Positions 31,504-57,241 of a DNA stretch of 64,000 bases are shown piece by piece (position 1 is the first letter of the stretch; every line of letters starts with the position of its first letter). The notes below the pieces were generated by a model. That model was given only the letters and a program-made list of their open reading frames with translations. It did not search any database and was not told the origin of the DNA. The DNA comes from Geobacteraceae bacterium (GTDB lineage Bacteria > Desulfobacterota > Desulfuromonadia > Desulfuromonadales > BM103), in assembly GCA_024641085.1 (NCBI GenBank), contig JAHEDT010000006.1, positions 41,856 through 105,855 of the forward strand. The letters are read 5' to 3'. The position numbers and the translations under genes were made by a program.

Positions 31504-31720
31504 GGGATTTATCTCCTTTTGCCTGGTCGGTCGCTAGTTTCCTGTCTCCCTGTACAATAGTTAGCTGTTTCTAATATTTATAGCAGGCCAACACGCCATG
31601 TCAAACCGTCGTCATGCCAGGGAGAATTACGCACGTGAGCAAAAAAAAACTTAATTCGCTCAGCTTTGACGCGTCCTGGTTCCCGTTATTTCATTGATGA
31701 GAGGATTTATTAACCGAAGC

Positions 31721-31907
31721 TTGCTGGGCCGTGCATTGATTACCGCTTGGTATGCCTTGGTGAGGGCATTCGGTAACCAGAATCCAGAATCCGGAATAAG
31801 TCCCGACAGCCAGGTGACGCCGCGCGTTTTTTCTGCCTACTGGATACTGTATTCTGGATACCCCGAGGCTTGCCGCGGGGCAGTGAGGACCGGCAAAGCC
31901 CCGCTGC
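31721..31907 (+). repeat. copy A of a ~190-nt structured intergenic repeat
   Basis: It shares a 27/31 5-prime block and a 31/32 core (CAGAATCCGGAATAAGTCCCGACRGCCAGGTG) with 50010-50204. An 18-position interrupted hairpin pairs 31777-31794 with 31840-31857. Confidence 0.6.
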
Positions 31908-48020: not shown

Positions 48021-49003
48021 TGGCACTGTTGGAAATTGAAAATCTAAGCGTCGAGTTCGGCAGCGAGGACCGCCCCTTCAAGGCGGTTGACCAAGTGTGC
48101 CTGAGTATCGACAAGGGTGAGGTGGTCGGTATCGTCGGTGAATCCGGCTCTGGTAAGTCGGTCACCGCAAAGGCGCTCATGGGACTGGTCGATTGGCCCG
48201 GAAGGGTCAGTGCCGAACGTCTGGAATTCAACGGTAAGGACCTGTTGAGCCTGTCGGAAAAGCAGCGACGACAGATTACCGGTTATGACATTGCGATGAT
48301 TTTCCAGGAGCCGATGACCAGCCTTAACCCCTGCTTTACCGCCGGCTACCAGATCATGGAGGCCTTGAAGATTCATGAGGGGGGCAGCAAGGCAGCACTC
48401 AAGGCGCGTGCCCTTGAACTGCTTGAACAGGTCGGCATCCCAGATCCTCAGGCACGGCTCAAGGCTTTCCCACACCAGCTCTCTGGGGGGATGAGCCAGC
48501 GCATCATGATCGCCATGGCGATCGCCTGCAACCCGCGGCTGCTGATCGCCGATGAACCGACGACCGCCCTCGACGTGACCATCCAGGCACAGATTCTCGA
48601 CCTTTTGCTCTCTCTGCAGCAGCGGGGGCAGATGGCACTGATGCTGATTACCCATGATCTGGCACTGGTCGCGGAAGCGGCCCAGAGGGTTGTGGTCATG
48701 TATGCCGGACAGGTGGTTGAAGCCGGCCCGGTGCCGGAGATTTTCGACCTGCCGCGTCATCCATACACGGCAGCTCTGCTGGAGGCGCTCCCGGAACGTT
48801 CACTGGGGCATTCCCGTTTACAGACGATACCCGGCGTGGTGCCGGGTCAGTTCGACCGGCCGACCGGATGCCTGCTCAACCCGCGCTGCCAGTTTGCCAC
48901 CGAGCGCTGTCGCCAGGAAGCCCCGCAGCTGTCAACCCTGGCCGATGGCCGCCAGGTGCGTTGCCACACGCCGCTGGATGATGAAGGAAAACCTCAGGGA
49001 TGA
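48020..49003 (+). CDS. dppD: peptide ABC transporter ATP-binding protein
   Basis: TAATG overlap with dppC. Motifs [16 protein letters not shown], and the oligopeptide C-terminal domain. Confidence 0.9.
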
Positions 49004-49983
49004 ATACCAAGACCGATCTGCTCGAAGCCCGTGACCTGACCCGCTTCTACGATGTGTCGCAAGGGCCTTTCAAACCGCACGCGGTGGTCAAGGCCCTTGA
49101 CGGGGTCACTTTTAGCGTTGCTACCGGAAAGACCCTGGCGGTGGTTGGCGAATCGGGATGCGGCAAATCAACCCTGGCGCGGCAGGTGACCATGATTGAG
49201 CGGCCGACCAGCGGCCAGCTGCAGTTCGACGGTTTCGACCTGGCCAATGCTTCGGACCAGCAGCTGAAAGAAGCACGTCAACGGGTGCAGATGATCTTCC
49301 AGAATCCCTTCGGTTCACTCAACCCGCGCAAAAAGGTCGGCAGCATCATCGGTGAACCATTGGTGATCAACACCGGTCTGTCCAAGTCCGAACGGGAAGA
49401 GCAGGTGCGATCGATGATGGGGCTGGTTGGGCTGCGCCCGGAATATTACGGCCGCTATCCGCACATGTTCTCCGGTGGTCAGCGCCAGCGGATTGCCGTT
49501 GCCCGGGCGCTGATGCTGAGGCCGAAGCTGGTGGTTGCCGATGAACCGGTCTCGGCGCTCGATGTGTCCGTTCAGGCACAGGTGCTCAACCTGCTGATGG
49601 ATCTGCAGAGCGAGCTCAACCTGGCCTATCTGCTTATCTCCCACGATCTTTCAGTGGTGCGACACATCGCCGATGACGTGATGGTGATGTACCTGGGCAA
49701 GGTCGCGGAATATGGCGAATCAGAGCAGGTTTTCAGTAACCCGCGCCATCCCTACACCCGGGCTCTGCTCGCGTCGACTCCCCATCTCAAGCCTCAGAAC
49801 CGCCAGGAGCACATCGTTCTCAAGGGCGAAATTCCTTCACCGCTGGCCCCACCTGCAGGATGCGTGTTTCATACGCGCTGCCCCTACGCCAACGAACGCT
49901 GCAGGACAGAAATCCCTCAGCTGAGAACATTGGCCGATTCTCGTAAGACCGCCTGCCACGGAGTCGAGGAGGGGCGGGTTTAA
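49000..49983 (+). CDS. dppF: peptide ABC transporter ATP-binding protein
   Basis: ATGA overlap with dppD. Motifs GESGCGKST and FSGGQRQR. Confidence 0.9.
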
Positions 49984-50009
49984 TCGACAAGAGGTTCATG
50001 TCCCTCAGT

Positions 50010-50204
50010 TTGCTGGACCTTGCAGTGATTGCCGCTTGGTTCGCGCCTTATGGAGGGAATCCAGTACCCGGAATCCAGAATCCGGAATAAGTCCCGACGG
50101 CCAGGTGGGATCGCGAGTTTATTTGTCTGTTGGATACTGAATTCTGGGTTCTCCGCGGCAAGCCACGGGGCAGTTCATTCGACAGGGGGGGCATTCCCCG
50201 CTGC
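50010..50204 (+). repeat. copy B of the ~190-nt structured intergenic repeat
   Basis: Same 5-prime block, core and hairpin (50068-50085 with 50130-50147) as copy A. It starts 27 nt after the dppF stop. Confidence 0.6.
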
Positions 50205-50532
50205 CTGCGGCAGCCCAGTCCCCTGGATTTTGAGCTAATCACCTACCGGCCCCCCCCTCTAAGAAGGCCCTGAGCACTAAATTTATGCGGATTGGCCCGT
50301 GAATTTTTGCGAAAATTGACTCAGTTTCTGATAGACTTCAAATTATTGTTATGCAGGTATGTGGGTTATAACCCTTTAGACAAGCACCACCCGGTCCTTA
50401 CTGCACTCGTGCGGCAGTCCGGTTGTGTGCCGTGCTCCTCCGGCAGGCCTTGCTGGGCTGTCCGGTTATTCGTTGAACGGTTTGCTGCCGCTGCCGCAGC
50501 AGGGTTTTTCTCAAAACAGAGGGAGGTTGCAT

Positions 50533-57133: not shown

Positions 57134-57241
57134 CGAAACCTCTCGCCGCCATTCTCCTTATGTGTCACCGCACCTCCGCGCCTTGGCGTGAATCAATGGC
57201 TTCGGTTTTGTTGTGCCTTTGTTGGAGGTATAGGCTCGAAA

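Follow-up and report, generated by a model that had tools for sequence, protein, structure and literature searches.

The two related segments of about 190 nt found in the window, i.e., the whole 64,000-nucleotide stretch of DNA analysed here, very probably represent fossil copies of a non-autonomous, gene-less element of the IS200/IS605 family (PATE/MITE). End homology, copy number, sharp ends, a target hexamer, empty sites, a strand bias and the lack of covariation were all observed directly. The preliminary description of the region left the choice between a small RNA and a REP/MITE-like repeat; it is the second that suits the segments, in the form of a tnpA-less derivative of an insertion sequence of the IS200 group.

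Both segments, called copy A and copy B, were grouped in repeat family D3, and their homology was confirmed by BLAST of copy A against the genome (E 7.7e-33; 76-79% identity between the copies over ~190 nt). The two conserved blocks first quoted (27/31 and 31/32 matches) were correct, whereas the extent was not: the intervals 31721-31907 and 50010-50204 missed ~26 nt on the 5' side and included ~23 nt of non-repeated flank on the 3' side of the unit given in Table 1. The "distal GC hairpin" described before has to be replaced, since only its 3' arm belongs to the true terminal hairpin and the partner sequence is unrelated flank; the true hairpin is flipped in copy B. The interrupted 18-position hairpin does exist in both copies, with its two mismatches at equal positions, only the 5' arm in copy A had been placed at 31777-31794 and is shifted to the coordinates of Table 1. 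Copies A and B show 86.5% and 87.0% identity to the family consensus, respectively. Copy A has lost the final TTCATT, its TEM reading TGAGGA, and is a fossil. A third copy in the window, suggested by a fuzzy match to the 5' end at ~20584, was rejected as a chance match.

Table 1. Position of the elements, their parts and further features discussed in the text (window coordinates unless a contig or locus is named)
Feature	Position	Strand	Remarks
Host target hexamer (transposon-adjacent motif), copy A	31689..31694	+	TTTCAT; family consensus TTNAAT
Copy A, putative ~195-nt tnpA-less IS200-type element (PATE)	31695..31884	+	nhmmer match C111:73544-73738, model positions 1-195
Copy A, decayed left-end subterminal hairpin	31715..31728	+	CGAAG-CTTG-CTGGG; consensus CGCAG-CTTG-CTGCG; 3/5 pairs left
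Copy A, central long imperfect hairpin	31778..31857	+	arms 31778-31795 and 31840-31857; CCAGAAT / ATTCTGG heptamers, T-rich apex
Copy A, right-end subterminal hairpin	31861..31880	+	CCCCGAGGCTTGCCGCGGGG (CCCCGNGGCTTGCCGCGGGG); alignment of 52 right ends
Host target hexamer, copy B	49979..49984	+	TTTAAT; includes TAA stop (49981-49983) of upstream ABC-ATPase ORF 49000-49983
Copy B, 195 nt	49985..50179	+	terminates in TTCATT; nhmmer match C111:91834-92028
Copy B, left-end hairpin	50004..50017		4/5 pairs kept
Copy B, central heptamer hairpin	50068..50147	+	arms 50068-50085 and 50130-50147; aligned with copy A
Copy B, right-end hairpin, reverse-complemented ("flipped")	50151..50170	+	CTCCGCGGCAAGCCACGGGG; loop CAAG instead of CTTG; G.T becomes C.A
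Left-end-like remnant	50180..50205	+	CGACAGGGGGGGCATTCCCCGCTGCC; immediately right of copy B; common to G001 and G002
Second, unrelated repeat (partial)	57170..57223		full examples in G000: C35:24266-24419, C104:13507-13662, C5:16619-16793
Single-copy RAYT-like genes, outside the window	C117:12401-13054 and C117:44360-45319		217 and 319 codons, stop to stop
Heptamer hairpins without IS200-type ends	L033 (G026:C15), L035 (G004:C32), L040 (G016:C45), L037, L038

The whole genome assembly (G000; 3.51 Mb in 152 contigs) was searched with BLAST and iterative nhmmer, which gave 72 non-overlapping nhmmer loci, 60 of them at least 100 nt long and 47 full-length. Instead of the two copies known at first, the family has about 60-70 copies dispersed over the genome, with a median identity of 78.5% between pairs and of 88% to the consensus. 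The distances from left to right end fall into two classes, one of ~46-49 nt (seven copies at exactly 49) and one of 179-202 nt, and the 49-nt form carries a single hybrid hairpin. Nearly all copies (58/60) are intergenic, and all four possible orientations to the neighbouring genes occur at similar frequencies (17/16/14/12).

A second dispersed repeat of ~160 nt, unrelated to this family and containing ...ACTAACGCAAAGACGCGGAGACGCAGAGAGCAATGCC...CCTCTGCGCCTTTGCGCCTCTGCGTTAAAC, has more than 40 copies in G000, and the congeneric genome G001 contains it, too (Table 1). Several of the IS200-type copies adjoin seemingly related repeats with CACCAAGACACGAAGCGATCAC / GCCTTCGTGTCTTCGTG motifs.

The element is made up of three parts. 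A left end of ~42 nt, composed of CGACGAGAGGGTTSATT and the hairpin CCCCGCAGCTTGCTGCG, is followed by an internal non-coding module of ~115 nt, which is mostly a long hairpin of CCAGAAT heptamers, and by a right end of ~33 nt that consists of GATA, the hairpin CCCCGTGGCTTGCCGCGGGG and CAGTTCATT. The family boundaries are abrupt: on the left, TT-N-AAT is followed by CGACGAGAGGG and on the right the similarity stops at ...GGGGCAGTTCATT. In the 47 aligned left junctions TT-N-AAT is conserved just before the element and the information drops to zero further out, and in the 52 right ends it is zero straight after TTCATT. Among 42 full-length copies the target hexamer (TAM) most often reads TTTAAT (11), TTCAAT (9) or TTGAAT (7). 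Comparison of the aligned termini, CGACGAGAGG... and ...CAGTTCATT, reveals no inverted repeat, and the flanks of the 47 left and 52 right junctions show no target-site duplication. In classical MITEs the termini are inverted repeats, and DDE transposases produce a duplication of the target site. The present family resembles such MITEs (Correia, RUP, ERIC, Nezha, Chunjie) in being intergenic, ~100-200 nt long and of high copy number, with a long hairpin and lineage-specific bursts, but it has neither inverted termini nor target duplications.

The two subterminal hairpins, CGCAG-CTTG-CTGCG on the left and CCCCGTGG-CTTG-CCGCGGGG on the right, are both found on the plus strand and share an identical loop. 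In ~6 of the 52 right ends the hairpin is reverse-complemented (copy B and the copies at C4 ~26070, C98 ~124330, C148 ~5205, C117 ~17550 and C147), a reversal that, as judged from the alignment, took place in the DNA itself as a flip of the palindrome. The number of heptamers differs between copies, indels of 7 nt in the heptamer region are seen all over the family, and 63 of the 67 occurrences of the heptamer motif in G000 lie within it. The intact set of both hairpins, TTNAAT and TTCATT is kept in only 9 of the 42 full-length copies. Most copies, including A and B, have damaged ends and are read as fossils.

A small protein was also considered, either from plus-strand frames with a Shine-Dalgarno-like GAGAGGG followed by TTG/ATG or from a minus-strand frame of 43 codons. 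It was rejected because no start codon is conserved and indels of 1, 2, 7 and 14 nt among the copies shift the frame. That indels between copies A and B are no multiples of three had been recognised before.

To place the ends, the right-end 22-mer GCTTGCYGCGRGGYAGTTCATT was scanned over one genome per species. It was found in more than 119 contigs among the matches listed, and in very many phyla, the hosts being Thermodesulfobacteriota, Bacteroidota, Planctomycetota, Nitrospirota, Omnitrophota, Patescibacteria, Binatia, Gammaproteobacteria and an archaeal MAG. In several of these contigs an ORF ending in ...Y(V/I)xxQG...LH..QLxLF stops just before the hairpin. Four complete elements (L120, L155, L163 and L180) consist of TTTAAT, the left end, an ORF of 147-148 amino acids and the right end; on the left they read TTTAAT followed by C..GGGT..ATTCCCCGCAGCTTGCTGCG, and on the right they terminate in GATACCCCG.AGCTTGCTGCGGGGTAGTTCATT. 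The ORFs of L163 and L120, the two that were scanned, match the Pfam family Y1_Tnp (PF01797, "Transposase IS200 like") with E values of 7e-39 and 6e-36. The genome G022, from the same bacterial family, contains a full-length element as well. This element (L187, G022:C60:67521-70877, positions 1403-1941) has one in-frame TGA in tnpA, which possibly makes it a pseudogene.

The left-end hairpin motif of copy A is found upstream of tnpA in the full-length relatives as well, and its right-end hairpin matches the right end of the tnpA-bearing IS200-type elements. Since both ends are shared with elements that carry a transposase gene, the unit in the window is bounded by the LE and RE of an IS200-group element. 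Between them, the transposase gene is replaced by the ~115 nt of hairpin-forming sequence.

IS200-group elements carry tnpA only and are ~0.6-0.7 kb long, e.g., IS200 of Salmonella and E. coli. With this group the family shares LE and RE homologous to those around a Y1_Tnp gene (L120, L155, L163, L180 and G022), subterminal hairpins at both ends on one strand, the lack of inverted termini and of target duplication, and insertion 3' of a short specific motif. It differs in having no transposase gene and ~115 nt of unrelated hairpin sequence between the ends. The searchable literature contained no record of the CCCCGCAGCTTGCTGCGGGG hairpins, the TTNAAT target or the TTCATT terminus, and no description of these PATE end sequences.

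PATEs were first named in Haloquadratum walsbyi (PMC3119063), and PATE-like elements are described from Geobacillus stearothermophilus (PMC10055086). Like these, the present elements are short, gene-less and multi-copy, have kept only LE and RE, are presumed to be mobilised in trans and outnumber the autonomous copies: among the 120 right-end matches listed, 9 adjoin tnpA and 71 lack it but have a left end no more than 400 nt away, the tnpA-less elements falling into size classes of 44-47, 80-97 and 112-275 nt. In contrast, the known PATEs derive from tnpB-bearing elements of the IS605/IS1341 type and often have omega-RNA scaffolds, whereas here the parent is tnpA-only and G000 has neither TnpB nor a cognate tnpA.

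PATEs with the same ends in other phyla (L070, L113, L133, L074, L073 and L084) contain different internal cargo, often again ATCCAG...CTGGAT hairpins or a repeat of the GTCATTCCGGCGAAAGCCGGAATCCAG type. Intergenic (GAATCCA)n / (TGGATTC)n heptamer hairpins that lack IS200-type ends occur in other genera of the same family and order (Table 1), and the cargo of the PATE may stem from the capture of such a hairpin.

The distribution of the copies in close relatives indicates that the element was mobile. G000 contains ~65 copies, the congeneric G001 ~8, and the congeneric G002 (99% complete) none. Copy B is missing at the orthologous site in both G001 and G002; in G001 the locus reads GGGTTTAAT and then continues directly with the sequence that lies right of the element in G000. 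In G002 the two flanks of the C79 site join directly, without an insert, and in G001 the C63 and C27 sites are empty. In the reverse case, a copy of G001 is missing from the orthologous locus of G000, thus insertions went on after the species had split.

The target hexamer is present in the empty orthologous sites, which identifies it, on comparison of the loci, as host DNA. At C63, G001 has TAC-TGA-GT where G000 has TAT-TGA-AT followed by the element, and the hexamer often provides the stop codon of the upstream gene. At the site of copy B, G001 reads TTTAAT-TGATACGGGGTGAATTCCCCAG. The left-end-like remnant to the right of copy B is probably what is left of an older element, with copy B as a later insertion beside it. 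This order of a new copy directly before an older left end without AAT was seen twice, the second case being C27 (pair ending at ~50094, minus-strand reading), where a 194-nt copy is followed by a short-form copy without the AAT of the hexamer. The C27 tandem fits a re-use of the retained TTNAAT target before an existing element. Because of the comparison of stop codons at C63, the site of copy B in G001 and the two tandem arrangements, the left boundary of the element was placed after TTNAAT and not before AAT, with an ambiguity of 1-3 nt, and insertion is read as occurring 3' of TTNAAT. Insertion next to this motif by an element that itself terminates in the similar TTCATT corresponds, as far as the junctions tell, to the TAM/TEM logic of the IS200/IS605 family (PMC5027513; PMC10055086). 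The target motif is usually quoted as 4-5 nt (PMC5027513) and comprises 6 nt here.

The top strand of the element preferentially lies on the G>C strand, namely in 38 of 52 copies when a context of +/-20 kb is used (p = 0.0012) and in 39 of 52 with +/-40 kb (p = 0.0004), GC skew serving as a proxy for replication direction in a fragmented assembly; skew is uncorrelated with gene strand in G000. This matches the bias for the lagging-strand template reported for the IS200/IS605 family (PMC5027513).

Single copies might have been co-opted in cis while the family as such is still mobile DNA, e.g., copy B as 3'-UTR stabiliser or terminator of the ABC-ATPase gene and copy A as an influence on the divergent promoter region. 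Copy B begins at the stop codon of ORF 49000-49983, ~11 copies start no more than 8 nt from the stop of a co-oriented upstream gene, and the apex of copy A contains a weak stem with a T-run behind it. However, the proximity to stop codons is explained by the hexamer, as TTTAAT and TTGAAT contain TAA and TGA, respectively, and the orientation to the neighbouring genes is random. Moreover, copy B lacks the terminator-like site, which is weak (5 bp) in copy A, and the relatives manage without the copy B insert. We regard such a function as unlikely.

The remaining question is whether the hairpins are maintained as RNA. Covariation was tested with 33 copies, a structure folded from the consensus and 500 shuffles. 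The fraction of paired cells (87.8%) equals the shuffled mean (87.8%), the covariation score was 0.088 compared to 0.089 in the shuffles and was reached by 341 of the 500, and all five covariation measures correspond to the shuffled controls. RNAalifold yielded almost no consensus structure for the family because slippage of the heptamers blurs the alignment, hence the use of the consensus-folded structure. In ~1,670 cells at Watson-Crick pairs of the consensus (42 copies), the departures were 80 G.T, 79 A.C and 118 others, and only 5 cells were compensatory. The outer helices of the central hairpin show an excess of G.T over A.C (29 vs 12, p = 0.01), which could hint at weak selection on the top strand; the right-end hairpin shows the opposite trend (11 vs 22).

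The changes between copies A and B from A-T to G.T at position 3 and from G-C to G.T at position 18 are real, but the earlier conclusion that this pattern is tolerated only in a plus-strand RNA does not follow: G.T and A.C are equally frequent in the family, the flips of the right-end hairpin turn G.T into C.A, and hairpins of the top strand as single-stranded DNA would tolerate G.T just as well.

A multi-copy family of structured sRNAs transcribed from the plus strand, whose long hairpin would act in trans on mRNAs or proteins, is very improbable in the light of these data. It could draw on the somewhat better fold of the plus strand (copy A -68.6 vs -56.7 kcal/mol for the minus strand; z -1.4 vs -0.5), on the three G.T pairs of the consensus structure and on the G.T excess in the outer central helices, and in Salmonella the left end of IS200 is a known source of regulatory RNAs. 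However, the predicted fold energies of the copies are unremarkable (z of -1.4 to -1.7 for plus and -0.5 for minus), neither copy contains a promoter-like site, and the T-run after the weak stem in copy A is the only terminator-like site. Covariation in the 33-42 copies analysed does not exceed the shuffles, derived G.T and A.C mismatches balance each other, and a lack of significant covariation had been named at the outset as evidence against an RNA. A scan against Rfam gave no match over the whole window at the gathering threshold and none for both copies at E values up to 10. In addition, the flips create C.A mismatches, the copies are randomly oriented to the genes beside them, and the family is absent from the congeneric G002.

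No cognate transposase was detected in G000: tblastn with two TnpAs of the family gave a best E value of 1.6, no pair of LE and RE lies 0.3-10 kb apart as expected for an autonomous copy, and a search with PF01797 revealed no IS200-type tnpA in G000, G001 or G002. The cognate enzyme may be lost, or missing from the 152-contig assembly; in either case this bears on the present mobility and not on the origin of the family. G000 does have two Y1_Tnp-domain (RAYT-like) genes, both on C117, that score 60 and 45 bits and thereby exceed the Pfam cut-off, while G001 has one and G002 gives no match. Each of the two genes in G000 lies between inverted repeats of its own, namely GGGGACACTC...GAGTGTCCCC in the first and GGGGTCAGGTCTACACATTTCAC with its complement (GGGGTCAGGTCTACAC-type) in the second. 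As these flanking hairpins differ and neither gene has hairpins of the CCCCGCAGCTTGC type, the resident genes were rejected as partners. The hairpin type of the first gene is also found elsewhere, e.g., beside the copy at C117:17544.

The presence of these two genes in a genome without canonical IS200 tnpA, the REP-like size of the 46-49-nt form with its one GC hairpin and conserved tail, and several copies on C117 itself would agree with a domesticated REP/RAYT-like system that is moved or maintained by a resident Y1-like gene of C117 and serves the host, e.g., in mRNA stabilisation, termination or protein binding. REP/REPIN sequences and their RAYTs (PMC2817692, PMC3333891) likewise comprise dozens of GC-rich extragenic palindromes with a conserved tail and a Y1-related mechanism. 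But REPs flank a single-copy RAYT, whereas here both RAYT-like genes carry other hairpins, and the ends of the family match bona fide mobile IS200 elements, with a defined LE/RE polarity and target hexamer. The copies also decay without compensation, and neither G002, which lacks Y1_Tnp and copies alike, nor G001, with one gene and only ~8 copies, favours such a system; we judge it highly unlikely.

That the PATE encodes an omega (guide) RNA for a TnpB or IscB nuclease can be considered largely refuted and as good as excluded. PATEs of other IS200/IS605 elements often have omega-RNA scaffolds beside the right end (PMC10055086), and a structured stretch of ~150 nt lies before the right end here, but the zinc-ribbon domain of TnpB (PF07282) is found nowhere in G000 although it was detected in the control genomes, the parents are tnpA-only elements of the IS200 type of ~0.55 kb, and there is no covariation.

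Under the preferred reading of the copies as decayed IS200/IS605-family PATEs, a Y1/HUH TnpA supplied in trans would bind the single-stranded form of the top strand at both subterminal hairpins, excise this strand as a circle ("peel and paste") and paste the circle 3' of TTNAAT on the lagging-strand template, without duplication of the target. A burst would have generated the ~60-70 copies in the lineage of G000, which now diverge by ~12% from the master. After this burst the transposase would have been lost, and neutral decay of the copies is the most economical reading of what followed. The conservation of sequence and "structure" would then be inherited from the master copy and not be the result of selection.

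A further scenario is that an IS200-type element, with ends nearly invariant in more than 15 phyla (including CPR and an archaeal MAG), persists mainly as PATEs, and that the copies in the genus of G000 were moved by a non-cognate Y1/RAYT-like enzyme, or that the heptamer hairpin was recruited as a host module (protein-binding site, top-strand or RNA hairpin). We think this quite unlikely; if true, the family would be in transition from an IS200 PATE to a domesticated REP-like system.

Taken as a whole, the finding is an ordinary mobile repeat and not a new structured RNA, and it opens no new question. For the annotation of this genome, it calls for masking the ~60-70 segments and the 46-49-nt forms as relics of mobile elements instead of listing them as sRNAs, small ORFs or regulatory motifs. 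Its value for the biology of mobile DNA is modest: it provides a clean case of a tnpA-only IS200 lineage that yields PATEs, with a 6-nt target, TTNAAT, that frequently falls on a stop codon, with a bias for the lagging-strand template that is measurable even in a draft genome, and with one IS200 end sequence that is nearly unchanged across very distant phyla.
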